Counted from the first letter of the stretch, positions 5,090-55,228 are shown. The stretch: DNA of 64,000 bases from Frankiales bacterium (GCA_033851265.1 JAWWOW010000005.1:302972-366971); one strand, 5' to 3'. The notes: a model not told the origin generated them from the sequence alone. Numbers and translations: made by a program.

Positions 5090-7039
5090 ATGGAGATCTT
5101 TCTCGTCTACACCATCCTGGGGATTGTCACGGGCTGCGTGTATGCGATCACGGCGACTGGCCTGGTGGTCACCTACACCACGACCGGCATCTTCAACTTC
5201 GGCCATGGCGCGATCAGCATGTTCGCTGCTTATACGTACTGGCAGCTGACCCAAGCCTGGAACATCCCGCAGCCAATCGCCCTGATCCTGGTGCTGTTCA
5301 TCCTTGCTCCCGCGTTCGGCGTCGTCATCGAACGCGTGCTCATGCGACCGATGTACGGCGCACCTGTCGACCTGACCCTGGTCGTGACCCTTGGGCTGCT
5401 GCTGACATTGCTCGGTTTGGCTTTTTGGGCCTGGGACCCGCAGGTCACGCGGCTACCTGTTGACTTCTTCAACCGCCGCGAGTTTCACGTCGGCTTTCTT
5501 GCGGTGTCCTACACGAAGGTCGTCACGGTCATCGTGGCCATCGCGATCGCGATCGGCCTGAAGGTGTTCTTCTCGCGCACGCGCACAGGTATCGCGATGC
5601 GTGCGGTCGTTGACAACCCGGACCTGGTGGCGATGGCCGGCGGTCGCCCGTACCGGATCCAGCAACTGTCCTGGGCTCTCGGATGTTCGCTGGCGGCAAT
5701 CGCCGGCATTCTCATCGCCCCGCTCACTCAAAACGTGCTGGACATCAACACCCTCACCCTGAACGTCATCAACGGATACGCCGCAGCAATGATCGGCCGG
5801 CTGCGAAACCTGCCCGCAACCGTTGCTGGTGCCATCGGAATTGGGTTGCTAACGCAGTACACAGTCGAGTTTGCGCCCTCAGGACAGTTCTGGAACAAGG
5901 CGTACCAGATCATTCCGATGGTCGTGTTGTTCATCGCACTGATTCTGTTGCCGCAAGACCGACTCCGCTCCGGATCGCTCGCCGCACCAGTTGCCCCGAA
6001 GCCGGCGGGACTGCGCTCGTCCGTGGTGTGGGCCGTCATCCTCGTCGTCGCGACAATCGTGATCTCCGGCCACTTGTCGCTGTCAAACCTGCAATCCGGC
6101 AGCCAAGGCTTTGCTCTGGCTTTTGTACTGCTCTCGTTAGTCGTGCTCACCGGGTATAGCGGCTTGCCGTCTCTCTGCGCGATGACGTTCGTGGGTCTAG
6201 GTGCCTACGCCGTCGGTCACTACACCGCACATGGATCACTCCTGGGCGGACTGCTCGGAGTCTTGCTCGCGATGGCCGTGGGCGTCCTGGTGGCGTTGCC
6301 GACATTGCGGCTCCGTGGGCTCTATCTTGCGCTCGCCACACTCGCCTTCGGTCAGGCGATGTACACCGTGTTCTTCGTCGGGTATCTCAGCAAGGGAACT
6401 GGCACCGGCGTCGGCTTGGACATCGAACGACCGAGTGTGTTCGGAATCTCGACCAGTTCCAACCGCGCATTCCTCATCTTCACTGCGGCCGTCTTCGCAA
6501 TTGCGTCGATCGGCGTCCTCGCCTTGCGGCGGGGTCCGTACGGCCGCCGCATGGCCGCGTTGAATGACTCGCCCGCTGCGTGCGCGACGCTAGGCGTCAA
6601 CATCAACTGGACGAAGCTGTCAATCTTCGCGCTCTCAGCCGGTCTAGCCGGCTTTGGCGGGTTGTTGTTCGGCGGTGTCACACAACTTGTCACGGACACT
6701 GACTTCTATCTATTCCAGAGCCTCATCATCTTGCTACTTGTGCGCATCGGTGGCATCAATACCGTGAGCGGGGCGTTTCTCGGTGCGATGTTCTTTGCTG
6801 CGTTCCCGATCATTCAGACGCATGTCGCCGGGGTCGCAAACCTGCAGTACATCCTGACCGGCGTGGGTGCCATCGCGTTGGCGCGCGACCCCAACGGACT
6901 GGGTCGACGGGTTGCAGAACTCTGCGAATGGGCGCGCAACCTCGTGTCGCGAGAGCGGTCGAAGCCAAAACCGGTGTCGAGCGACAGAGTTCTCGACTAT
7001 CTGCCGGAGGAGGAGAGCCTTGCCACCGCCGGCCACTGA
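5090..7039 (+). CDS. Fused branched-chain amino acid-type ABC permease (LivH-like plus LivM-like domains)
   Basis: 649 aa with two successive polytopic permease modules and the characteristic motifs (GLVVTYTTTGIFNFGHGA...; GYSGLPSLCAMTFVGLGAY). Follows the second SBP with a 15-nt gap. Confidence 0.9.
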   Translation: MEIFLVYTILGIVTGCVYAITATGLVVTYTTTGIFNFGHGAISMFAAYTYWQLTQAWNIPQPIALILVLFILAPAFGVVIERVLMRPMYGAPVDLTLVVTLGLLLTLLGLAFWAWDPQVTRLPVDFFNRREFHVGFLAVSYTKVVTVIVAIAIAIGLKVFFSRTRTGIAMRAVVDNPDLVAMAGGRPYRIQQLSWALGCSLAAIAGILIAPLTQNVLDINTLTLNVINGYAAAMIGRLRNLPATVAGAIGIGLLTQYTVEFAPSGQFWNKAYQIIPMVVLFIALILLPQDRLRSGSLAAPVAPKPAGLRSSVVWAVILVVATIVISGHLSLSNLQSGSQGFALAFVLLSLVVLTGYSGLPSLCAMTFVGLGAYAVGHYTAHGSLLGGLLGVLLAMAVGVLVALPTLRLRGLYLALATLAFGQAMYTVFFVGYLSKGTGTGVGLDIERPSVFGISTSSNRAFLIFTAAVFAIASIGVLALRRGPYGRRMAALNDSPAACATLGVNINWTKLSIFALSAGLAGFGGLLFGGVTQLVTDTDFYLFQSLIILLLVRIGGINTVSGAFLGAMFFAAFPIIQTHVAGVANLQYILTGVGAIALARDPNGLGRRVAELCEWARNLVSRERSKPKPVSSDRVLDYLPEEESLATAGH

Positions 7040-7808
7040 AACGTTCGCTAGCACCGAGCCCGTTCTCGAGGTGATCGGCGTCTCCGTGCGTTTCGGTGGG
7101 CTGCAGGCGCTCGACCTGGTCGACCTGACTGCCCTACCCGCCCAGATCACCGGTCTGATCGGCCCGAACGGTGCCGGTAAGACGACTCTCTTCAATGTCA
7201 TCACGGGGCTCGAGCGGCCGACAGCGGGACGCGTCGTGATTGCTGCCAAAGACGTCGGACGGATGTCGCCGTTCCGCCGGGCGCGACTCGGAATCGGTCG
7301 GACCTTCCAGCGGCTCGAGGTTTTCGGCTCGCTGTCCGTGCACGACAACATCCTGGCGGCAGCGGAGTTTCGAAAGGGTTGGGCCCGCGACGGTTCCAAG
7401 CCGAGAGACGTTGCTCGGGAAGTGATCGAGCGCATCGGTCTAGGCGACGTGAGCGACTCGCGTGTGGAGTCGCTGCCGACGGGCCATGCCCGCCTGGTCG
7501 AGCTAGGACGCGCTCTGGCGACGCGTCCGCGACTACTCCTGCTGGACGAGCCCGGCTCCGGTCTGAACTCGGAGGAAACGGAGTCTTTAGGCCACCTGCT
7601 GACCGAGTTGGCCGACGAAGGCACGGCAATCCTGCTCGTCGAGCACGACATGGAACTCGTGATGCGGGTGTGCCACCGCATCTACGTGCTCGACTTCGGC
7701 AAGATCATCTCGACGGGCACTGCTGCCGACGTGCAAGCAGACCCGGCCGTACAAGCGGCGTACCTTGGCACCGATACCTCCCTTACCCCGGAGGGGGAGG
7801 TGGCCTAG
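7020..7808 (+). CDS. livG: ABC transporter ATP-binding protein, LivG-like
   Basis: Walker A GPNGAGKTT, LSGG-like signature and Walker B LLLDEP. Proposed TTG start at 7020 sits after a GGAGG (7007-7011) and overlaps the permease stop by 20 nt. The track ORF 6867..7808 has no internal ATG before the NBD. Confidence 0.8.
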   Translation: MPPPATETFASTEPVLEVIGVSVRFGGLQALDLVDLTALPAQITGLIGPNGAGKTTLFNVITGLERPTAGRVVIAAKDVGRMSPFRRARLGIGRTFQRLEVFGSLSVHDNILAAAEFRKGWARDGSKPRDVAREVIERIGLGDVSDSRVESLPTGHARLVELGRALATRPRLLLLDEPGSGLNSEETESLGHLLTELADEGTAILLVEHDMELVMRVCHRIYVLDFGKIISTGTAADVQADPAVQAAYLGTDTSLTPEGEVA

Positions 7809-8519
7809 GTGACGACAGCAGCGCTAGAGCTCATCGACGTGCGCGCGGGCTACGGCCGTATCGAGGTGCTGCACGGCGTCTCGTTCGCAGTGCCCACCGG
7901 CACGGTGTTCGCTCTTCTCGGACCCAACGGGGGCGGCAAGTCCACGACGATGCAGGTGATCTCCGGCAAGATCCGGCCGACGGCCGGATGTGTGCACATC
8001 GCCGGAACGCACGTCAACGGCGCCAGCCCCGATGGGTTGACGCGTGCCGGGGTGTGCCGGATCCCCGAGGGTCGCGGCATCTTCCCGAACCTCACCGTGA
8101 CCGAGAACCTGCGGATGTGGACGTACGCCGCTGAGCTGTCGTTGCGGGATGTCGAAGAGCGCACGTACGCGCGGTTCCCACGACTTGGTGAACGCCGCCG
8201 GCAGCGGGCGGGCACGTTGTCGGGTGGCGAGCAGCAGATGCTGGCGATGTCACGCGCATTGGTGTCCGAACCCGCATTGCTGTTGCTCGACGAGATTTCG
8301 ATGGGCCTCGCGCCCCTGATCGTTGCCGAGCTCTTTGAGCTCGTCGGTCAGCTTGCACAAGAAGGCATCACCATCTTGTTGGTGGAGCAGTTCGCACATA
8401 CGGCGTTGGCCGTCGCTGACTACGCGGCTGTCATGACGCAGGGCCAGATTGCGGCCGTCGGTGAACCCGGCGATGTCGAGAGCATGGTTTCCGAGGCGTA
8501 CCTGGGAGGTGTCGCATGA
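7809..8519 (+). CDS. livF: ABC transporter ATP-binding protein, LivF-like
   Basis: GTG start immediately after the livG stop. Walker A GPNGGGKST, signature LSGGEQQML and Walker B LLLDE. Confidence 0.9.
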   Translation: MTTAALELIDVRAGYGRIEVLHGVSFAVPTGTVFALLGPNGGGKSTTMQVISGKIRPTAGCVHIAGTHVNGASPDGLTRAGVCRIPEGRGIFPNLTVTENLRMWTYAAELSLRDVEERTYARFPRLGERRRQRAGTLSGGEQQMLAMSRALVSEPALLLLDEISMGLAPLIVAELFELVGQLAQEGITILLVEQFAHTALAVADYAAVMTQGQIAAVGEPGDVESMVSEAYLGGVA

Positions 8520-9871
8520 AGCGACGCATAGCGATGGCGAGCCTTGCTACCGGAGGGGCGCTGTTCGTCACAGGCGGCCTGGGCATGGGTGGTGTGTGGG
8601 CAGCCGACGGGGCCGGCTCGGGCTTTGGCTCGCTCGGTCTGGTTGGTCTCGCGCACTCGGTACGCCTCGTCGGCCTCAACGCCGACGGCAAAGAGGGTGA
8701 AGGCCAGGTGCCCTATAGCGCTGCCACTCTCGCCACCGGCCCATTCGGTCATGCGTTGTCATCGATCGTCTGGCCCGGTGGCACCGCGGGCAACGCTGGA
8801 TCAACGCTTGGGTTGTTGGGCAACCCGGCCTGCGCCGCCGCGTCCAACGTGCATCCGATCCCAGGGTGCCCGCCGCTTCCGGTCGCGCTTTCAGAGAAGT
8901 ACCCAGCTCTCAACGACGATCTGAAGGTCGAGTCGCAGACCAACAGCGGCGACGCCAGTGACAGCATCAACCAGGGTGATGGCGCAGTAGTCATGTCCGC
9001 CACGGCCCTCGAGGACGATGTTCGAGCGGAGTCCTCGGTCGCCGGCACTCGAATCACTGGCGTTGGCGTCTTTGGCCCGAGCAGCGCTGCGGCGCGGACC
9101 CAGCTCACCGGGGCCAAGTCGGCGGTCAGTGACGCGTCGAGCCAGGTCCGTGACGTCGACCTGGCGGCCGGCGTCTTCAAGATCGGTTCGGTGAAATCAG
9201 TGGCGCACGCAGTCACGAATGGGGTGACTTCAAGCGGCACCGGCAGCTCGGTCGTGACGGGCTTCACCATCGCGAAGGTGCCGGTGACGGTCGATGACAA
9301 GGGGATCCACGTCAACGCGACTGGTGGCTCTGCCAAGGCAGCGAATGACGCGGTTAACAAGGCCGTCAAGAACTTCAGCTTCCAGGCCTATTTGACTCAG
9401 CCGACGTCGACCACCAAGGGCGGCGATACGACCTACAACTCGGGCAGCCTCGTCATCGTGATCCTCGATCCGTCGTACCAGTCCGGAGCCAACAACGACG
9501 GGCACGTGCTAGAGATCGGTGGGGCGTCGGTCACTGCTTCGGCGCTACCAGGCTTCGGCGGGCCGCTCCCGCCGTTCGTCTCGATTCCGCCAGTGGGGAC
9601 TACGCCCACCACCACGCTTCCGGGCTTGGGAGCAAGCACGGGCACGGGCACCACCGGCGGATTCGCGCCGGCCCCGAATACGAGCGGACCTAATGGGTCG
9701 GTCCCGCCAGTGCAACTGGCCGGAAAGCCGCTCGGTGAAGTGTTCGGCGGGTTGTCACCGGCGTGGGCCGTCGCAGTGCTGTTCGGGGTGGGCTTCATGG
9801 CGGCCGGCTTCCGCCGCTTACCGGACCGGCTGTTGGAAGACACCGGCGCTAGTTGTCCCTTGGAGGATTGA
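8516..9871 (+). CDS. Exported protein of unknown function with N-terminal signal peptide and C-terminal transmembrane anchor
   Basis: ATGA overlap with livF stop. N-terminal MKRRIAMASLATGGALFVTGGLGMGGVWAADG. C-terminal hydrophobic AWAVAVLFGVGFMAAGF followed by RRLPDRL. Thr/Ser/Gly-rich. Confidence 0.65.
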   Translation: MKRRIAMASLATGGALFVTGGLGMGGVWAADGAGSGFGSLGLVGLAHSVRLVGLNADGKEGEGQVPYSAATLATGPFGHALSSIVWPGGTAGNAGSTLGLLGNPACAAASNVHPIPGCPPLPVALSEKYPALNDDLKVESQTNSGDASDSINQGDGAVVMSATALEDDVRAESSVAGTRITGVGVFGPSSAAARTQLTGAKSAVSDASSQVRDVDLAAGVFKIGSVKSVAHAVTNGVTSSGTGSSVVTGFTIAKVPVTVDDKGIHVNATGGSAKAANDAVNKAVKNFSFQAYLTQPTSTTKGGDTTYNSGSLVIVILDPSYQSGANNDGHVLEIGGASVTASALPGFGGPLPPFVSIPPVGTTPTTTLPGLGASTGTGTTGGFAPAPNTSGPNGSVPPVQLAGKPLGEVFGGLSPAWAVAVLFGVGFMAAGFRRLPDRLLEDTGASCPLED

Positions 9872-45837: not shown

Positions 45838-46494
45838 CTAGTGGCTCGCCGGGACCGCTCCTGATCCGTCGTCGTTCTTAGCCGGTGCTGGCGGCGGCGT
45901 ACCGGAGATCGATGCAGCGATCGCTGTTGCGCGTTCGGCATCGGGACCAGGTGGCTGCACGAGCACCGTCGCCCGGTAGTAACGCAACTCGTCGATGCTC
46001 TCCTTGATATCCGCCAGCGCGCGATGACCGCCGGCCTTCGCGGGGGCGTTGTAGTAAACGCGCGGATACCACCGGCGCGCGAGCTCCTTGATGCTCGATA
46101 CGTCGATCATCCGATAGTGCATGTGCGACTCGAGCTTCGGCATGTCCCGCGCCAGGAACGCCCGGTCGGTCGCGACTGAGTTGCCACACAGCGGCGCCTT
46201 GCCGGCGTCGGGCACGAACTGACGGATGTAGTCGAGCAGCTGCTCCTCGGCGTCCGCCATCGACAGCGTGGCGACCTTGATCTCCTCGAGCAGGCCTGAC
46301 GACGTGTGCATCTCGCGTACGACGTCGGGCATCCCGTCGAGCGCTTCCTCCGTCGTAGCAATGACGAGGTCGAGGCCGTCGTCGAGCAGCGCAAGCTCGG
46401 AATCTGTGATGACGACGGCGACCTCGACGAGCGCATCACGGCTCAGGTCGAGGCCGGTCATCTCACAGTCGATCCACACCAGCCGGTCAAGCAC
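45838..46494 (-). CDS. orn: Oligoribonuclease
   Basis: LVWIDCEMTGLD DEDD exonuclease motif I. HYRMIDVSSIKEL motif III. Confidence 0.9.
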   Translation of the reverse strand: MLDRLVWIDCEMTGLDLSRDALVEVAVVITDSELALLDDGLDLVIATTEEALDGMPDVVREMHTSSGLLEEIKVATLSMADAEEQLLDYIRQFVPDAGKAPLCGNSVATDRAFLARDMPKLESHMHYRMIDVSSIKELARRWYPRVYYNAPAKAGGHRALADIKESIDELRYYRATVLVQPPGPDAERATAIAASISGTPPPAPAKNDDGSGAVPASH

Positions 46495-46533: not shown

Positions 46534-46983
46534 CTACGCACCCGGCGCGGGCGTGCCCCACGGCCGGACGGCCCGGAGAGCGGCCACCAGGTTGATGACT
46601 CCGATGGCGGCCGGGCAGTACAGGTCGGCGCCCTCGTCGAGCGCTTCCGACTCGTCCTGCGGGCTGCCGGTGCCGTTGATGACGACGAGAGCCGCGGTCG
46701 GCGCTGCCATCCGGAGGGCGCGTAGCAGCAATCGCTCGTTGAGGGCATGCATGGCAAGGTCGACGATCATGAGGTCGGGCTGCAGGTCCTGGGCTCGGTG
46801 GACCGCGACGGCGTAGGTGGCGGCGGTGCCGACGACAGTGAAGTCGGGTTCACCGTCGAGAATCCCCTGCAGCGCAGCGGAGTGAATCGACCGGTCCGTC
46901 ACCAGCAGGACCCGCCGGCTCGCGGTTACTCGGGACGGCAGCGCTGTGACGGACTGCCGACTCATCGTGCGACGTTGCTCCAT
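46534..46983 (-). CDS. Stand-alone response-regulator receiver domain protein
   Basis: VLLVTDR...DLMIVDLAMH receiver-like pattern. No output domain. Start chosen at the internal Met. Confidence 0.55.
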   Translation of the reverse strand: MEQRRTMSRQSVTALPSRVTASRRVLLVTDRSIHSAALQGILDGEPDFTVVGTAATYAVAVHRAQDLQPDLMIVDLAMHALNERLLLRALRMAAPTAALVVINGTGSPQDESEALDEGADLYCPAAIGVINLVAALRAVRPWGTPAPGA

Positions 46984-47196
46984 GAGACTGGCCTTGCCCT
47001 TCGACCGGAGTTGCTGGGATGTGTCGGTCTTGAGCCCCCCATTTGGACCTGCGTGCATTGGTCTATTCGGCCCAGCAAGAGTCAGTCTTGAGCCCAATGT
47101 CGGATTTCGCAGGCAGTTGTCACCCAAACGGCACATTCCGCTCATGGGCCGGCGCAGGGCTCGTCCCGGTAGCCGGTGCAGTTCGTGAGCCCGAGG

Positions 47197-47592: not shown

Positions 47593-47689
47593 CGCGATTC
47601 CTTCCGGCCAGGTACCTGCCGACCCATCGCGACGTCGACGGGTCAGCCCACGCTCAAAGGTTCGCCAGGTATGGCTTGGCTCCGCGTTG

Positions 47690-47763
47690 CGCGCCCGGCA
47701 GGGGTCGAACCTGCGACCTGCCGCTTAGAAGGCGGCTGCTCTGTCCAGCTGAGCTACGGGCGC
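47690..47763 (-). tRNA. tRNA-Arg (anticodon UCU)
   Basis: Reverse-strand. Acceptor GCGCCCG/CGGGCGC. Anticodon arm GCCGC-CTTCTAA-GCGGC. T-arm GCAGG-TTCGACC-CCTGC. Discriminator G. No encoded CCA. Confidence 0.8.
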
Positions 47764-47807: not shown

Positions 47808-48293
47808 TCAGCGTCTGGCGCGACGGGCGGTCAGCGAGGCTGCACCGAGCAGCACGAGCGCGGCAATCGGTACGCCGATCGGCAACCCGGTGTTCGGCAT
47901 CTGCGGCGTACCGGCCGTGGTCCCGCCGCCGCTGCCACCTGACCCACCGGAGCCGCCCGATCCACCGCTGCCGCTGCCAGAGCCGGAACCACCAGAGCTA
48001 CCCGACCCGCCGGGAGTGCTCGGCGGGCTGGTCGGGGTCTTCGGGCCCTGCGTGACCGTTGGCTCCGGGCTCGGCGACTCCGTCTCGGACGGCGACGGGG
48101 AGGCCGTCGCGTTGGGCGCGGCCGACGATTTCTTGTTGTCGTCGTGCTTGACGATCGCGGTCGCGACGCCACCGATCATGAGCAGCACAAGAAGAGCAGC
48201 GAGCATGCCAACAAATTGCCGCTCCGGACGGGCCACGCGCCCAAGTCCACCATTCATGGCCCCTCTATGCCCAAACGGCGCGCCGTATCCCAA
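47808..48293 (-). CDS. Gly/Ser/Pro-rich surface protein with N-terminal TM/signal and C-terminal sorting-signal-like tail
   Basis: N-terminal hydrophobic FVGMLAALLVLLMIGGVATAIV. (GSG)n low-complexity middle. C-terminal MPNTG + hydrophobic stretch + RRARR, an LPXTG-like tripartite signal. Confidence 0.55.
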   Translation of the reverse strand: MGYGAPFGHRGAMNGGLGRVARPERQFVGMLAALLVLLMIGGVATAIVKHDDNKKSSAAPNATASPSPSETESPSPEPTVTQGPKTPTSPPSTPGGSGSSGGSGSGSGSGGSGGSGGSGGSGGGTTAGTPQMPNTGLPIGVPIAALVLLGAASLTARRARR

Positions 48294-48337: not shown

Positions 48338-50794
48338 CTACTCGGCCACCTGCGGGAGCACCGCGAGCCTGGCCCGACGCGGTTGGGGGACCCCGCGGGA
48401 CCGATTGCCGACCGGATCGCCCGTCGCCAATGCCGTTCGAACCGTCGCCGCCGGGGCCGGCATCCCGAGATGGAAGCCCTGCGCCAGATCACAGCCCAGG
48501 TCAGCGAGGCGATCCCGCAGCGGGCCCGACTCGACGCCTTCGGCGACGACCCGCAGTCCCAGCCCGTGCGCCAGCTCGATCGTGGCCCGAACGATGGCGA
48601 AGTCGCCGGCGGATCCCAACATGCCGGAGACGAACGAGCGATCGATCTTGACCTCGTTCACCGAGATGCGTTGGAGGAGCGCAAGCGACGAGTAGCCCGT
48701 GCCGAAGTCGTCGACGCTGAGCTCGACACCTAACCGGCGAAGCGAGGCGAGCACATCTTCGACAACATCAAGCTCGCTCATCATCGTCGTCTCGGTGATC
48801 TCGAGGACGAGATTCTCGGCGGGCAGACCGTGCCGCGCGAGCACGCGGTGCACGTCGTCGGGGAGCTGGCGATCGAGCAGGTTCCGCGCCGACAGATTGA
48901 CTGCAACTGAGAGCGGTGACCCGGTGCGATGCCACTGCGCGCATTCCGCGACGGCTCGGTCAAGCACCCGCATTGCGAACTGACGGACCAGACCGGACTG
49001 CTCAGCGACCGCGACGAACTCCGACGGGGCCAGCAGCCCCCGGGTCGGGTGCTGCCAACGGACGAGCGCCTCGTAGCCCACGACGGTGTCAGTCAGGAGA
49101 TCGATCTGCGGTTGGAAGTACGTAACGAGTTCGTCGCGCTCGATCGCGGCGTGCAGCTCAGCCACGAGCGCCAATCGGTCGAGGTTGGAAGCGTCACGGT
49201 TGGGGTCGTAACGCCGCCAATGGCCACGCTCGTCCTTGGCCTGATACATCGCGATGTCTGCGCGTTGCAGCAGTTCCTCGACGCTCCCGCCGTCTTCCGG
49301 GTAGCACGCGACCCCCATGCTGCCTTCGATCGACAGTCGCATGCCTTCGAACGTCACGGGGTCCGTGAGCGCCGAGAGCAGGTTTTCGGCTGCGATCGAC
49401 GCGGCGATTCCGCCGGACAGGCCCGGCAGCAGTACGCCGAACTCATCACCACCGAGTCGCGCGATGGTCGCACCGGCCGGTACCGCGTTACGTAGTCGGT
49501 TTGCCAAGTTGCGCAGGAGCTCATCACCGGCGGCGTGCCCGAGCGTGTCGTTGATCTCTTTGAAGTGGTCGAGATCGAGCAACAACAGAGCAACGGTTGT
49601 CCCACTCAGCTGCGCATCATCGAGCGCAGCTGCGGTTTTGGTCAGCAGCAGACCACGACTGGACAAACCCGTGAGCGCGTCATGCGCCGCCTCGTGCGCA
49701 GCGCGCGCGGCCTGCCGCTGCACCGCCGAGTGCAGCCGCGCGTTGACGAGCGTTGTGCTGACCGTCCCGGCGTACGTCGTCAGCACCTGAATCTCGCGCT
49801 TTGACAACTTGCCGGTATCACCGAGCCCGACGCGCAGCGCACCGAGGACGCCGTCGGGGCTGGTGAGATGTGCCATCGCGCACGTCTCAGCCATCATCGG
49901 CTCTCCTGCGGACGGCTGCTCACCCAGGCGATGCGTCACCGAACGACCGGCGTCAGTCAGCACCAACTCGACCCACGCGGCCTGAAACAACGCTTTCGCA
50001 TGCCGGAGTGCGGCCTGGGCAACGGCTTCCTCGTCGAGTTGGTTGAGGTCCTTCGTCGCCGTCTCGAGCTGACGCCAGTAGTTCACATCGCGCGATGCGC
50101 CGAGGTAGCCGCGGTACACGGCGTACAGCAGAGCGAGGATCGGTGGGAGTACGGCGAGCGCCGGTGGCGCCCAGCGCGCCATCACCACGATCGCGACTCC
50201 TGCGGCGATGTTCGCCGCCCCCACCGATGTGCGGAAGACGACACCCGCTGCGTAGACGTCGCGGATCCGTCGACCTGCTGCCAGTGCCACGACGGTTGCG
50301 GTGGCGGCGCCGTTCCACGCCCAGAAGACAACGAGCGCTGCGGCGATCGACGCAACGTCGGACGGCGAAATCGTACTGACGGTCGTTGGACCGCTGGTTT
50401 GCATGACCAGTGCGGCTAAGGCGCTACCAATCACGAAGGACGACGCGTTGAACACGGTCTTGAGCCACGATCGGCCACGCAGGACGTGCGCCACGATCAC
50501 CGCGAGCCCCGCTAGCGGGAGCACGTATGACCACGGAAGTAGCAGCAGCGCGACGGCAAGCATTGCCTCGGCGAACGTCACTGACTCGGCCTCCGCGCCG
50601 GTCCGAATGTCCACGAGGGCGGAGTCGGCCAACAGCAGAGCTAGCAGCGCGATGACGAGATGTGACGTGCGCGGGCTGGTCACGGACGACGCATGTACGA
50701 CCGCGACGCTGACGAGGGTCACGGCGACGACAGCGACGCCAGCCACCGTTAGCAGCAGGTGTTGCCGCGTCCAGGACGAACCCGGTGGCGTCAC
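48338..50794 (-). CDS. Membrane-anchored GGDEF-EAL protein (diguanylate cyclase/phosphodiesterase) with multi-TM and GAF-like sensor region
   Basis: About 8 N-terminal TM helices. RLGGDEFGV GGDEF motif. EALVRW EAL motif plus DDFGTGYSSL. Start overlaps the S8 protease stop. Confidence 0.9.
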   Translation of the reverse strand: MTPPGSSWTRQHLLLTVAGVAVVAVTLVSVAVVHASSVTSPRTSHLVIALLALLLADSALVDIRTGAEAESVTFAEAMLAVALLLLPWSYVLPLAGLAVIVAHVLRGRSWLKTVFNASSFVIGSALAALVMQTSGPTTVSTISPSDVASIAAALVVFWAWNGAATATVVALAAGRRIRDVYAAGVVFRTSVGAANIAAGVAIVVMARWAPPALAVLPPILALLYAVYRGYLGASRDVNYWRQLETATKDLNQLDEEAVAQAALRHAKALFQAAWVELVLTDAGRSVTHRLGEQPSAGEPMMAETCAMAHLTSPDGVLGALRVGLGDTGKLSKREIQVLTTYAGTVSTTLVNARLHSAVQRQAARAAHEAAHDALTGLSSRGLLLTKTAAALDDAQLSGTTVALLLLDLDHFKEINDTLGHAAGDELLRNLANRLRNAVPAGATIARLGGDEFGVLLPGLSGGIAASIAAENLLSALTDPVTFEGMRLSIEGSMGVACYPEDGGSVEELLQRADIAMYQAKDERGHWRRYDPNRDASNLDRLALVAELHAAIERDELVTYFQPQIDLLTDTVVGYEALVRWQHPTRGLLAPSEFVAVAEQSGLVRQFAMRVLDRAVAECAQWHRTGSPLSVAVNLSARNLLDRQLPDDVHRVLARHGLPAENLVLEITETTMMSELDVVEDVLASLRRLGVELSVDDFGTGYSSLALLQRISVNEVKIDRSFVSGMLGSAGDFAIVRATIELAHGLGLRVVAEGVESGPLRDRLADLGCDLAQGFHLGMPAPAATVRTALATGDPVGNRSRGVPQPRRARLAVLPQVAE

Positions 50795-52731
50795 GGCACA
50801 GCGCTCGTGATCGTGCCTACGTCGGCGGTCGCTTCACCGAGGACCGGCTTCCACCATGGCGGTGCATCGCCCCAGAACGCGGTGAGGAACTGCGCCTCAC
50901 CGACACCGAAGAACAACGTGCTCGTCCACGTCGTGCCCGTCCAGGTGGTACCCGTCCAGGTGGTACCTGTCCACGTCGTCCCCGTCCAGGCGGTGCCGCC
51001 CTGCCACGCCCCACCGAGCCACTCGCCGCCTGTCCACGTCGTGCCTGTCCACGTTGCGGGCGTCCAGGCTTGCGACGTCCACGTCGTGCCGGTCCAGCTG
51101 TCGCCCGTCCAGGTCGTGCCGACCCACGCGCTGCTGTCCCAAGGTTCGCAGCGGACGTCGATCTCGCCAGTCACGACCGTCGTGGTGCCGCTGCATTGCG
51201 CCAGCACGTGAACGCCACCGCGGCTGCCTTCGATCGAGCCGGTGCCGGAGGACGCCGGTTGCTGGCGCGGTGCTGCGGCGGCGCTGGCCGTGAGGGCTCG
51301 CGTGAGATGCAGGCGGCCGGTCCCGACCTGGTTCGCTGAGAAGTTGTCCAGTGGGTGGGCGGCGGCTCGCAGCAGGTACTTCACTTCGTCGGGCGTTAGG
51401 TCGGGGCGCTGGGCGAGCAGCAGCGCGGCAACACCCGACGCGACAGCGGTGGCTTCCGACGTACCGGACCCGCGGATGTAACTCGGCCCAATGAGCGCAC
51501 TCGGGTTCGCTTGCTCGACTGTCGAGCCGAAAGACCGCGCGGCGATCAAGCGGCGACCTGGTGAAACGAGGTCGGGCTTGGTCACACCATCCGCTGTGGG
51601 GCCTCGCGACGACCAGACCGGCAGGACGTCGTCGGTGTCGTCCTCGTCGTTGCGGTCGTTGTAGGCGCCGACTGTCAGCACCATCGGGTCGTCGGCCGGT
51701 TTCACGATGCTGCCGGCGAACGGTCCGGAGTTACCAGCGGCAGCGACGACGACGATGCCGAGGCGCCACAGCCGTTCGACCGCGTGATTGACCGGATCGA
51801 CCGACGGGCTTTGCGTTGACGGCACGCCCCACGAGAGGTTGAGCACACGGATGTTGAACTGCGTGCGGTACGCCGCCACCCAGTGCATGGCTTGCAGCAC
51901 TGTCGTCACGTCGACCGAGCCATCACGCCCGGCGACCTTGACTGCCACGACGTTCGCGCGCGGTGCGACTCCGGTGTAGGGCCGTTGCGCCCCGCTGTCC
52001 GCGCCATTCCCAGCAATGAGCCCGGCCATCACGGTGCCGTGTCCGTACGTGTCGACACTCGTGCCCTCGCCGGACAGATCCGGACCGTGGACGATCCGAC
52101 CCGCTAGGTCATTGACGTCGGACACACCGGTATCGATCAGGGCGACGCCCACGCCGGCGCCTTGATTGCCATTGGCCCAAGCGGTCCTGGCACCGGTGCT
52201 CCCGACAAATGATGACGCCGATCGCTCCTTGTCACCCCGGTCGGCGGAGTCGCTGCTCTTCTTGTCGGGCTTGCCCTTGTCCTTTTCCTTGTCGTTGTTC
52301 CGGTCGCCTTTGTCGTTGTTGCGATCGCCGTTGTCGCGACGGTCGTCGATAGGCCAACTTGTCAGCTGCACTTTGCGGTCGGCCGTCACCGCGAGTACGG
52401 CGGAATCCATCGCCAAGGGACGCAGTGCGTTCGCGCGTACGGTGGCTGCGACACCATCGACGATGGCGAGATGCGCGCGGACGACACCGCCCGCACGGCG
52501 TACCGCGTCTGCCGCAGACTCGGTCGTCCCGTCCGTGGCCGTCACGATGACGCGACTCAGACCTGCTCCACTCGTCGCTAGCCCCGGGTCGAGGTGCGTG
52601 ACGTGCTCGCGGGACGCGGTTTGTGCAGCAGCAGTTGCAACACCTGTTGTTGGGCCAATGACGAGCAGCGCTGTGGCGAGGACGAACCCACATACACGCC
52701 GTCGTGTCAGCCCCACCATGTGTTGGGTCAT
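50791..52731 (-). CDS. Subtilisin-like serine protease (S8) with I9-like propeptide, Lys/Asp-rich insert and C-terminal (TTWTG)n repeat domain
   Basis: Signal peptide. Catalytic D (ALIDTGVSD), H (HGTVMAG), S (GTSEATAVASG). Insert DRRDNGDRNNDKGDRNNDKEKDKGKPDKK. C-terminal WTGTTWTGTTWTGTTWTGTTWT. Confidence 0.9.
   Translation of the reverse strand: MTQHMVGLTRRRVCGFVLATALLVIGPTTGVATAAAQTASREHVTHLDPGLATSGAGLSRVIVTATDGTTESAADAVRRAGGVVRAHLAIVDGVAATVRANALRPLAMDSAVLAVTADRKVQLTSWPIDDRRDNGDRNNDKGDRNNDKEKDKGKPDKKSSDSADRGDKERSASSFVGSTGARTAWANGNQGAGVGVALIDTGVSDVNDLAGRIVHGPDLSGEGTSVDTYGHGTVMAGLIAGNGADSGAQRPYTGVAPRANVVAVKVAGRDGSVDVTTVLQAMHWVAAYRTQFNIRVLNLSWGVPSTQSPSVDPVNHAVERLWRLGIVVVAAAGNSGPFAGSIVKPADDPMVLTVGAYNDRNDEDDTDDVLPVWSSRGPTADGVTKPDLVSPGRRLIAARSFGSTVEQANPSALIGPSYIRGSGTSEATAVASGVAALLLAQRPDLTPDEVKYLLRAAAHPLDNFSANQVGTGRLHLTRALTASAAAAPRQQPASSGTGSIEGSRGGVHVLAQCSGTTTVVTGEIDVRCEPWDSSAWVGTTWTGDSWTGTTWTSQAWTPATWTGTTWTGGEWLGGAWQGGTAWTGTTWTGTTWTGTTWTGTTWTSTLFFGVGEAQFLTAFWGDAPPWWKPVLGEATADVGTITSAVP
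50915..51140 (-). repeat. Tandem ~15-nt coding repeats encoding (T-T-W-T-G)n pentapeptide units
   Basis: Plus strand shows reiterated gtccaggtggtaccc / gtccacgtcgtgccc units. About 13 pentapeptide copies in the protein. Confidence 0.7.
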
Positions 52732-53024
52732 GGCCGGTCCTCCGGAAAAGGGTCACTTTCCGTGCGGGTCTGAATGCTCTGTGTACGACACTCGCTGAAC
52801 AATGGCCCGCAGGTAGTCCGTTCGGGCCATTTCTGACAGCGATGTGTCCGGTTGCGACCAGTCACATCACCACTCGTTCGGGCTGCCCCATTGGGGTGAC
52901 ACATGGCCGATCTGGACTACTCCTCACCATCCACAGATCCACAATTCGTCTCCGCTGAGGCAATTGCGTGGCCTCACCCTGTACGACGGCGGCGCAGTGC
53001 CGCCCTCACTCGTCGGAGGTCTTG

Positions 53025-53510
53025 ATGAACTACGCGATCGTCACGTTCACCGGTTACGTCGCAACCAACCCAGAGCTTCGTACGACGACGACAGGCAAGA
53101 CGGTCGCGAGTTTTCGCGTCGCAACGACCGAACGCCGTTTCGATCGGCCGAGCGGCAAGTACATCGAAGGGGCCACCACGTTCTACACCGTCACTTGCTG
53201 GGCCTGGGTCGCCGAACGCGCGGTGAAGTGCCTCAAGACCGGCGACGGCGTCATCGTTTCCGGGCGACTGGCCGAGAAGAGCTACACACGACGGGATGGC
53301 AGTGGCGTGACTACCTACCTCGAGGTCGAAGTCGACGCGATCGGACCGGACCTCTTCAAGACCGACGTCGAAGTGCAACGTCGGCCTCGCCCGGACGAGG
53401 CGGCTTCGGCAGATGCGGCGCCGGCAGAGTCGACCGAGGTGCCTGCGCCCGCTGTCGCGCGCGACCCGTGGGCGAGGCCCCTCGGCCAGCGGGAGGAGCC
53501 CGCGGCCTGA
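53025..53510 (+). CDS. ssb: Single-stranded DNA-binding protein paralog
   Basis: ATG after CGGAGG. OB-fold N-terminus MNYAIVTFTGYVATNPELRTTTTGKTVASFRVATTER. Acidic and Pro-rich C-terminal tail. Confidence 0.85.
   Translation: MNYAIVTFTGYVATNPELRTTTTGKTVASFRVATTERRFDRPSGKYIEGATTFYTVTCWAWVAERAVKCLKTGDGVIVSGRLAEKSYTRRDGSGVTTYLEVEVDAIGPDLFKTDVEVQRRPRPDEAASADAAPAESTEVPAPAVARDPWARPLGQREEPAA

Positions 53511-53542: not shown

Positions 53543-55227
<1,685 letters not shown>

Positions 55228-55228
<1 letters not shown>

Follow-up and report, generated by a model that had tools for sequence, protein, structure and literature searches.

We examined a 64,000-nucleotide stretch of one strand from a Frankiales bacterium (GCA_033851265.1 JAWWOW010000005.1:302972-366971; hereafter the window, with positions counted from its first letter) and, within it, a pair of genes on the minus strand: an S8-family peptidase (that is, a subtilase) of 646 residues at 50791..52731, followed by an 818-residue GGDEF-EAL protein with multiple transmembrane (TM) segments. 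A database entry identical to the protease is titled 'MAG: serine protease AprX [Frankiales bacterium]' (MAG, metagenome-assembled genome). The protease ends in a regular array of tryptophan-centred pentapeptides, and the gene behind it begins with a membrane-sensor module that recurs behind such proteases across several phyla. We tentatively propose, with a confidence that stops a little short of even, that the two genes make up one instance of a conserved signalling module in which protease and sensor act as a unit. The features at the C-terminal end of the protease, at the junction and in the sensor protein are the following.

51139..51246, minus strand: Cys-Cys hairpin before the array, residues 496-531, with the pattern G.GSIE.SRGG...C513...GEIDVRC528E.W. 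(conservation and AlphaFold)
50920..51141, minus strand: array of x-x-W-[T/S]-G pentapeptides, residues 531-604 (15 Trp in register)
50794..50919, minus strand: conserved C-terminal tail of 42 residues, 605-646 (alignment of relatives)
50791..50794, minus strand: GTGA overlap of the protease stop codon (TGA) with the sensor-gene start codon (GTG), four nucleotides shared, read as ...GCT GTG CCG TGA
50111..50764, minus strand: membrane-sensor module, residues ~11-228 (hydropathy profile and alignment)
49715..50092, minus strand: GAF-like linker region, residues ~235-360, shortened (alignment with GAF-positive homologues)
49226..49690, minus strand: GGDEF domain, residues 369-523 (PF00990, E 1.4e-43, 148.9 bits), its GGDEF motif at residues 448-452 intact
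48458..49159, minus strand: EAL domain, residues 546-779 (PF00563, E 4.5e-72, 242.7 bits)

The original prediction, made on this DNA alone, had the two genes running in the same direction with the protease stop overlapping the start of the GGDEF-EAL gene, and this agrees with the GTGA at 50791-50794, which both minus-strand genes share. An identical 4-nt overlap is found in a close relative (L001), and the other relatives that were looked up have gaps of 5-52 nt. No terminator-like site was found on the minus strand between the protease and sensor genes. Given the overlap, the lack of such a site and the adjacency of the two genes in 75 of 80 related loci (see below), co-expression of the protease and the GGDEF-EAL protein, which had also been anticipated, is very probable on the sequence, and we propose that their translation is coupled.

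The sensor module comprises about eight hydrophobic segments (eight predicted TM helices) joined by short loops only, with conserved polar residues inside or beside the membrane (E71, N111 and N190). Behind it, the region corresponding to the linker matches GAF (PF01590) in 9 of 15 aligned sensors, and in the window protein the motifs of the EAL domain are intact (EAL at residue 575, DDFGTG at 695 and EGVE at 752). The module may be related to MASE9 (PF20972), distantly at most: the window protein scores 12.2 bits (E 0.18) and L011, the best of the proteins scanned individually, 20.5 bits against a gathering threshold of 24.3, and a scan of the 15 aligned sensors, which yields E-values only, places three at E <= 0.1 (best E 6.2e-5). 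Intramembrane-sensing MASE domains are described as having short loops and conserved polar residues, with MASE9 a probable intramembrane ligand sensor, in the MASE9 passages of Galperin and Chou (bioRxiv 10.1101/2021.11.05.467447). As far as those passages go, the resemblance would lie in an N-terminal module that crosses the membrane several times on short loops, has conserved polar residues in or near the membrane and is fused to different outputs (GGDEF-EAL or a kinase); the present module differs in being followed by GAF and in having a linked protease gene, for which the same passages contain no counterpart. The c-di-GMP (cyclic di-GMP) protein set of Streptomyces venezuelae includes no protein of the 8TM-GAF-GGDEF-EAL type (PMC6205966).

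The evidence that protease and sensor belong together comes from their relatives. A hidden Markov model (HMM) of the TM module was run against 85 protease loci, 80 of which have at least 1 kb downstream of the protease, and the sensor module lies downstream on the protease strand in 75 of these 80 loci (94%). In 72 loci the match starts 3-238 nt (median 66) past the protease stop. As output domain, 55 loci have GGDEF-EAL and 12 a histidine kinase; in the other 8 it is truncated or unclear. Five homologues viewed in their contigs all have a signalling gene directly downstream, with flanking genes that otherwise differ; four of these genes encode GGDEF-EAL outputs and one encodes GAF-PAS-HisKA-HATPase. 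The last of these, the kinase partner in locus L005, resembles the window protein over the TM and GAF region (29% identity, E 3e-39) and shows no other similarity to it by BLASTP. The GGDEF-EAL neighbour, mentioned in the original prediction as an aside, is the most informative feature of the locus, and the conserved partner in it is the N-terminal membrane-sensor module rather than the c-di-GMP domains, in place of which 12 loci have a histidine kinase. An open reading frame (ORF) with a REC domain lies near the kinase-type partners in only 2 of 14 loci, so most of the partner kinases appear to be orphan. The pair is found in Frankiales, Mycobacteriales, Acidimicrobiales, genera of the Micromonosporaceae type (Actinoplanes and Dactylosporangium), Blastococcus, Thermoleophilia, Chloroflexota and Dormiibacterota. 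Scanning in reverse, from the sensor, a repeat-bearing protease is directly upstream in 9 of the 14 loci with upstream room. A clade of 971-residue sensor-PAS-GGDEF-EAL proteins (L091, L093, L094, L095 and L099) has the TM module in common with these sensors and no protease upstream; the upstream genes of L091 and L093 are, by eye, of the aminotransferase and nitrilase type.

The family as we propose it combines an S8 domain, a G.GS(I/L)E..RG motif, at least 12 Trp at five-residue spacing, and a TM-sensor gene on the same strand immediately downstream; all of these are found in the window. The motif belongs to the hairpin, in which G496, G498, R504, C513, E523 and C528 are invariant in an alignment of 114 sequences (the same alignment in which the invariance of the other protease residues was judged). 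AlphaFold places strands at residues 510-513 and 516-519 with a predicted local distance difference test score (pLDDT) of ~90, and we propose that the Cys pair is of the disulfide type. In the array that follows, Trp stands at residues 531, 536 and so on to 576, then from 582 to 602, that is, at every fifth residue except for a single six-residue step between W576 and W582; TTWTG is the commonest unit (5 of 15). Tandem Repeats Finder reports the DNA as a period-15 array of 13.4 copies at 50917-51120, and the two-unit pattern TGGACNGG-N7-TGGACNGG occurs six times in the window, every time within the array, compared with 0.03 in shuffled sequence. The array thus lies where about 13 tandem Trp pentapeptides had been predicted, a count that proves slightly low (14-15 units).

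The short tail predicted behind the array is likewise there, as residues 605-646, and is conserved across relatives. It begins TLFFGVGEAQFLTAFWGDAPPWWKPVLGE... and carries the motif FLTAFWG..P....(P/L)GE (FLTAFWG at 50869-50889 and (P/L)GE at 50833-50841), in which F615, G621, G632 and E633 never vary and conservation reaches 90% or more at T617, A618, W620 and P624. Several relatives (for example, P0022, P0026, P0044, P0047, P0078 and P0093) extend past the PGE tail with two Cys ~8-15 residues apart, as in RCAAGAGAVCP and CAKDDGAVCA; this segment, which is absent from the window protein, suggests an additional disulfide loop.

What fold the array adopts is less readily predicted. The full-length AlphaFold model is confident except for the signal peptide, a charged insert (described below) and the array, with a pLDDT of ~28 in the array and 52-74 in the tail; a model made from an alignment of the domain only gives the array ~60 with short strands and the tail 67-85, at a predicted template modelling score of 0.28. 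The beta-helix or solenoid suggested at the outset is a possibility: the models give a weak solenoid-like hint of it and no confident fold. No Pfam or NCBIfam model covers the array. The pentapeptide-repeat HMMs PF00805, PF13599 and PF13576 have no match at E <= 0.1 in the full protein or at E <= 10 in residues 491-646, nor does the choline- or cell-wall-binding PF01473, the repeat of which is ~20 residues long compared with 5 here; the view that the array stands outside the classical pentapeptide-repeat and choline-binding consensus therefore withstands these searches. A sequence search of the PDB found nothing matching the hairpin, the xxW(T/S)G array or the FLTAFWG tail. The array does resemble the pentapeptide-repeat proteins of the Rfr type (for example, MfpA, Qnr and alr5209) in its strict five-residue period and in a large hydrophobic centre surrounded by small residues or Gly; it differs from them in that its centre is an invariant Trp and no HMM matches. 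A classical Rfr helix is unlikely, given the lack of an HMM match and given that many relatives have Arg, Lys or His at a position that would be buried.

The array is far from unusual. Homologues of the protease number more than 5000 at E <= 1e-5, which is a lower bound, and all 120 homologues among the matches listed share the C-terminal plan with an array of 12-23 units each, so the original description of the domain as novel, in the sense of unusual for the genome, is mistaken. Their units are SAWTG (19 copies in P0009), SSWTG, TTWTG, STWTG, NSWTG and AAWTG, with some STWRG or SSWKG. The genome scan additionally reveals a distant subtype (36-48% identity) in Actinoplanes, Dactylosporangium, Blastococcus, Virgisporangium, Thermoleophilia, Chloroflexota and Dormiibacterota, with units of the GRSWS, GSTWS and GKSWT kind and with neither the Cys pair nor the tail. 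Over all arrays, Trp is invariant at position 3 of the unit, position 5 is Gly in 83%, position 4 is Thr or Ser in 79%, and small or polar residues fill positions 1 and 2; in many relatives, an Arg, Lys or His stands two places before Trp. Array length is constrained (14-23 units, mean ~19, standard deviation ~2), and in the window's own clade irregular units (WTSQAWTPATW and GGxWxGGAWQ) are kept position by position down to ~58% identity.

Selection on the units acts at the level of the peptide. Across the 57 loci that carry five or more identical units, the mean difference between units of the same peptide sequence is 2.4 nt in 15, and just 13% of the pairs are identical as DNA, with codons scrambled even between Ser TCN and AGC and between Arg CGN and AGR; identical peptides despite scrambled codons therefore point to selection on the peptide rather than to recent homogenization of the DNA. 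Some block duplication is visible, for example as a 30-nt alternation in L003. The commonest unit varies by lineage, with 45 variants among the 85 loci. In L068, two tandem repeat-bearing S8 paralogues (5845-7620 and 7727-9541, 59% identical) precede a single sensor gene, and both carry NSWSG arrays written with different codons. Gene conversion as the source of this common unit is ruled out, as the longest common DNA stretch is 29 nt and nucleotide distances between the two arrays equal those within them. In each of two MAG bins, both subtypes are represented by a complete protease-sensor pair, with differing units (SAWTG in L007 and HTWSG in L070 of LS_FP_2_bin.126; SAWTG and RTWTG in L011/L059 of BP_98); the systems may run in parallel and insulated from each other, or else the bins may be chimeric.

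A HMMER search with the C-terminal 156 residues against 1.84 billion representative proteins, of which the best 148 matches were considered, yielded the array in every S8-matching protein. Short matches without S8 look like C-terminal fragments of the protease, and most of the longer non-S8 matches that were inspected are translations of eukaryotic repeats (satellite-like); P0180 has no Pfam match. Among these best 148 matches, the array is apparently specific to the S8 protease family. One of the eukaryotic proteins, P0121 (1154 residues, resembling an adhesion G-protein-coupled receptor with a GPS motif and 7tm_2), bears ~90 tandem (N-G-Q/L-V-W) pentapeptides in its ectodomain and appears to be an independent instance of Trp recurring at every fifth residue ahead of a membrane receptor. 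A literature search that included exact peptide strings returned no account of the array or of the protease-sensor gene pair, and both the array and the protease-sensor module appear to be undescribed in the libraries and literature available.

The remainder of the protease is more conventional, and its features are as follows.

52630..52731, minus strand: predicted signal peptide, residues 1 to ~34, with an RRR n-region, a hydrophobic core and ATA/A (read by eye; pLDDT <50 over residues 1-43)
52372..52599, minus strand: propeptide of predicted I9-like fold, residues ~45-120 (AlphaFold and Foldseek)
52219..52347, minus strand: charged insert rich in Asp, Arg, Asn and Lys between propeptide and catalytic domain, residues 129-171 (no counterpart in the family consensus; pLDDT <50)
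51322..52161, minus strand: Peptidase S8 catalytic domain, residues 191-470 (PF00082, E 5.6e-46)
52132-52134, minus strand: catalytic D200 (DTG), invariant column
52039-52041, minus strand: catalytic H231 (HGT), invariant column
51730-51732, minus strand: oxyanion N334 (GNSG), invariant column
51457-51459, minus strand: catalytic S425 (GTS), invariant column

The catalytic domain scores 157.6 bits against a PF00082 cut-off of 21.8, and the Asp/His/Ser triad reported at the outset is intact, D200, H231 and S425 being invariant, together with N334, in all 114 aligned sequences; by these signatures, the catalytic part is an ordinary subtilase. The I9-like propeptide, by comparison, is upheld by predicted fold and Foldseek only. 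The modelled elements (strands 58-65, 83-88, 93-99 and 112-117 and helices 70-79 and 100-107, pLDDT >90) would follow the beta-alpha-beta-beta-alpha-beta order of subtilase I9 propeptides over residues 58-117, and Foldseek aligns 487 columns to ProN-Tk-SP (3afg, E 2e-28), its alignments to pro-Tk-SP and to pro-subtilisin E exceeding 440 columns; the Pfam Inhibitor I9 model (PF05922) has no match to residues 41-125 at E <= 10 and none in the full-length scan. The predicted charged insert (DDRRDNGDRNNDKGDRNNDKEKDKGKPDKKSSDSADRGDKERS, residues 129-171) is indeed found ahead of the catalytic domain. It is encoded in part by a 21-nt tandem repeat of 2.3 copies at 52289-52336 (DRNNDKG units) and is a low-complexity expansion particular to this lineage, located where the propeptide is normally removed.

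Among solved structures, the closest to the propeptide and catalytic domain is Tk-SP of Thermococcus kodakarensis (PDB 3afg and 9ues), with a phmmer E of ~1e-45 over residues 180-478, 36% identity at a root-mean-square deviation of 2.1 A to 9ues, and the same D-H-S order. Tk-SP ends in a beta-jelly-roll domain, whereas the window protease ends in the Cys hairpin, the array and the FLTAFWG tail, and we know of no conserved signalling-gene partner of Tk-SP. Among NCBIfam models, the best match of the protease is to the mycosins (TIGR03921, E 4.2e-42), S8 proteases of type VII secretion that are likewise actinobacterial; its 144.5 bits fall short of the cut-off, 278.75. Where the window protease has the repeat array, mycosins carry a membrane anchor at the C-terminus, and no ESX genes were found near the protease. 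Membership of the mycosins, as of LapD for the partner protein (see below), was rejected on the HMM thresholds.

Building on the anatomy of the two proteins, their conservation across the family, the conserved operon, the exchange of output domains and the peptide-level selection described above, we propose the following scenario. The first gene would encode a secreted subtilase zymogen with a signal peptide, an I9-like propeptide and a catalytic domain of the Tk-SP type, followed by a C-terminal module of Cys hairpin, 14-23 x-x-W-[T/S]-G units and, in the window subtype, the FLTAFWG..P....GE tail. The second would encode an 8TM sensor with a cytoplasmic GAF-like domain that drives GGDEF-EAL (synthesis and breakdown of c-di-GMP) here and a histidine kinase in other lineages. 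Since hardly any of the sensor itself is exposed outside the cytoplasm, the protease may serve as its extracytoplasmic partner; the Trp array and tail would retain the protease at membrane or envelope beside the sensor, the output of which would be set by the presence, activity or products of the protease. For the array itself, we suggest that a fixed-length, position-specific, Trp-laddered rod or tether, rather than an Rfr beta-helix, is most likely. That the protease is secreted, that the two proteins are coupled physically or functionally, which way the signal runs and what the array does are thus put forward as proposals.

Several observations pull in the other direction. The GAF region of the window sensor has no Pfam GAF match and is missing ~45 aligned residues. 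In 5 of the 14 reverse-scan loci (the PAS-containing 971-residue clade), the sensor stands without a protease, and conversely five protease loci have no sensor match, one of them a paralogue (79% identical) whose genome has a complete pair as well; in Virgisporangium ochraceum (L073), the protease is present and no sensor gene was found adjoining it. In a partial Mantel analysis that controls for catalytic-domain distance, unit composition and sensor TM module correlate at r 0.07-0.11, and the EAL control gives the same. The short extracytoplasmic loops of the sensor would leave little surface for protein binding, AlphaFold assigns the array no structure with confidence, and the proposed rod or tether is drawn from composition, length constraint and a weak beta-helix resemblance in the models.

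Another reading is that the protease is an ordinary exoprotease, nutritional or matrix-degrading and anchored by its repeat, which would be a beta-solenoid-like or extended module that binds carbohydrate or cell wall, with the sensor merely co-regulated. C-terminal extensions of bacterial subtilases commonly anchor the enzyme or bind substrate, regularly spaced Trp-rich surfaces are typical of carbohydrate binding, and the constrained length and position-specific units of the array would suit a folded domain. Against it stands the adjacency in 94% of loci, across phyla and with differing flanks; co-regulation alone is hard pressed to explain why the sensor is kept while its output is swapped, and the finding of different units in the same MAG bins argues against a single envelope polymer dictating the unit. 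We therefore consider this reading unlikely, although still a serious candidate.

A second possibility, to which we give rather little credence, is that the array is a multi-copy precursor of Trp pentapeptides, or a tethered multivalent ligand, that is cut by the attached S8 domain, for example behind every Trp, to yield peptides that would partition into the membrane and be read there by the intramembrane sensor. Much of what is seen would fit: units are nearly uniform within a protein yet specific to lineage and system (85 loci have 45 different commonest units), codon scrambling has left identical units intact, two L068 paralogues before one sensor carry the same NSWSG unit, single MAG bins contain two systems with different units and a sensor for each, the full-length model gives the array no confident fold, and the sensor lacks an ectodomain and conserves polar residues within the membrane. 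By analogy, tandem lineage-specific units, an S8-family protease and a polytopic sensor without ectodomain recall Agr/Fsr (in which a processing enzyme and a peptide act with a multi-TM kinase), the Phr pentapeptides of Bacillus (matured by subtilisin, Epr and Vpr) and the Kex2-processed repeats of alpha-factor. Here, in contrast to those cassettes, the units are fused to the protease, flanks are conserved, copy number is tightly constrained and the sensor is not an HPK10-type kinase. A simple precursor would moreover have no need of the conserved hairpin and tail that surround the array in the window subtype, only 5 of the 15 units in the window are TTWTG, and the partial Mantel analysis detects no specific covariation of unit and sensor. 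The conservation of irregular units by position among orthologues points to a structural role rather than to interchangeable cassettes. The stronger form of this idea, in which the array would be a store of ligand joined to the very enzyme that processes it, and lineage-specific Trp pentapeptides, released or tethered, would be read at the membrane interface by the 8TM-GAF sensor, seems to us a shade less probable again; we know of no bacterial signalling system built in this manner. Were it true, the pair would form a compact quorum- or self-sensing cassette that feeds c-di-GMP or a histidine kinase in Actinomycetota and neighbouring phyla.

As a general kind, it is already known for a membrane signalling enzyme to be paired with a protease or accessory protein outside the cytoplasm, and LapG/LapD of Pseudomonas fluorescens, where an extracytoplasmic protease gene adjoins an inner-membrane GGDEF-EAL gene, is the established precedent for control from the inside out. 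By analogy, the GGDEF-EAL protein at this locus would sense cytoplasmic c-di-GMP and, acting across the membrane, capture or release the extracytoplasmic protease, which would then cut a surface adhesin or matrix protein; the tight linkage of the two genes accords with this, and a 161-residue surface-type protein with a PNTG end at 47808-48293 could be the substrate. LapG is reportedly a calcium-dependent cysteine protease, and LapD is said to have a periplasmic domain, a HAMP domain and degenerate GGDEF and EAL domains that only bind c-di-GMP. The protease described here is instead of the S8 type rather than a cysteine protease of the LapG type, and its partner has eight TM segments, no ectodomain, intact rather than degenerate GGDEF and EAL motifs, and an output that is interchangeable with a histidine kinase. 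Domain scans found neither a periplasmic domain of the LapD type nor HAMP, and the NCBIfam LapD model (NF045673) gives 137 bits against a cut-off of 1020. Since the sensor occurs with a histidine kinase and no c-di-GMP domain in 12 loci, a switch driven by c-di-GMP cannot be the common mechanism, and we judge this account improbable, on a level with the ligand store.

Last, that the repeat block is an artefact of assembly or slippage, or a classical Rfr pentapeptide domain that the models missed, is very improbable: although the DNA is a period-15 tandem repeat and x-x-W-T-G agrees with the [STAV][DN][LF][STR][G] consensus at three of five positions, the Pfam pentapeptide models stay silent even at E <= 10, the Arg, Lys or His often found two before Trp would be buried in an Rfr helix, and AlphaFold, which usually models such helices with confidence, does not do so for the array. 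Misassembly, named at the outset as what would undo the array, is ruled out together with a variable-number tandem repeat, as the same array (irregular units included) recurs in independent assemblies (P0002-P0010) of many origins with units that correspond one to one among orthologues; the synonymous differences between units are likewise unlike collapsed or mis-assembled repeats.

The neighbours of the protease are SSB, ABC-F, thioesterase, globin, Orn and REC-protein genes. Directly downstream of the GGDEF-EAL gene, the 161-residue protein (window 47808-48293, minus strand) is rich in Ser, Gly and Pro, with an N-terminal TM segment and an end that resembles a sorting signal (MPNTG, a hydrophobic stretch and RRARR); its NCBIfam NPXTG match is below threshold (E 0.0013). 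Close relatives L001 and L002 have ORFs of similar size without a Pfam match after the pair, and more distant loci do not. As a protein of the surface-anchored type, it could be a substrate of the protease. A few genes past the EAL protein lie an RNase_T exonuclease of the oligoribonuclease type (45838-46494, minus strand) and a stand-alone receiver-domain protein (46534-47145, minus strand), and L001 has the same two genes close to its pair. EAL enzymes produce pGpG, which Orn breaks down in other bacteria, and the proximity of an Orn-type gene to the EAL gene may not be accidental. Divergent from the protease are an SSB-family gene (52968-53510, plus strand) and an ABC-F gene with tandem ABC_tran and ABC_tran_Xtn (53543-55228, plus strand), an arrangement common to L001 and L002. 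A tRNA-Arg(TCT) lies at 47689-47763 (minus strand), with tRNA-His and tRNA-Lys further downstream.

The array is a very common unannotated protein element with an unusual signature (uniform peptides, scrambled codons and a system-specific unit), and Pfam or NCBIfam models for the repeat and for the sensor module would re-annotate thousands of entries now titled 'AprX / S8 family peptidase' and 'GGDEF-EAL'. Cultured carriers include Blastococcus deserti CGMCC 1.15935, Actinoplanes nipponensis NBRC 14063, Paractinoplanes globisporus DSM 43857 and Dactylosporangium spp. For c-di-GMP enzymes and orphan kinases, the inputs of MASE-type sensor domains are largely unknown, and a nearly constant protease neighbour provides a concrete candidate for such an input. 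The pair would extend the coupling of proteases to c-di-GMP, as in LapG/LapD of Proteobacteria, to Gram-positive soil lineages that use different parts.

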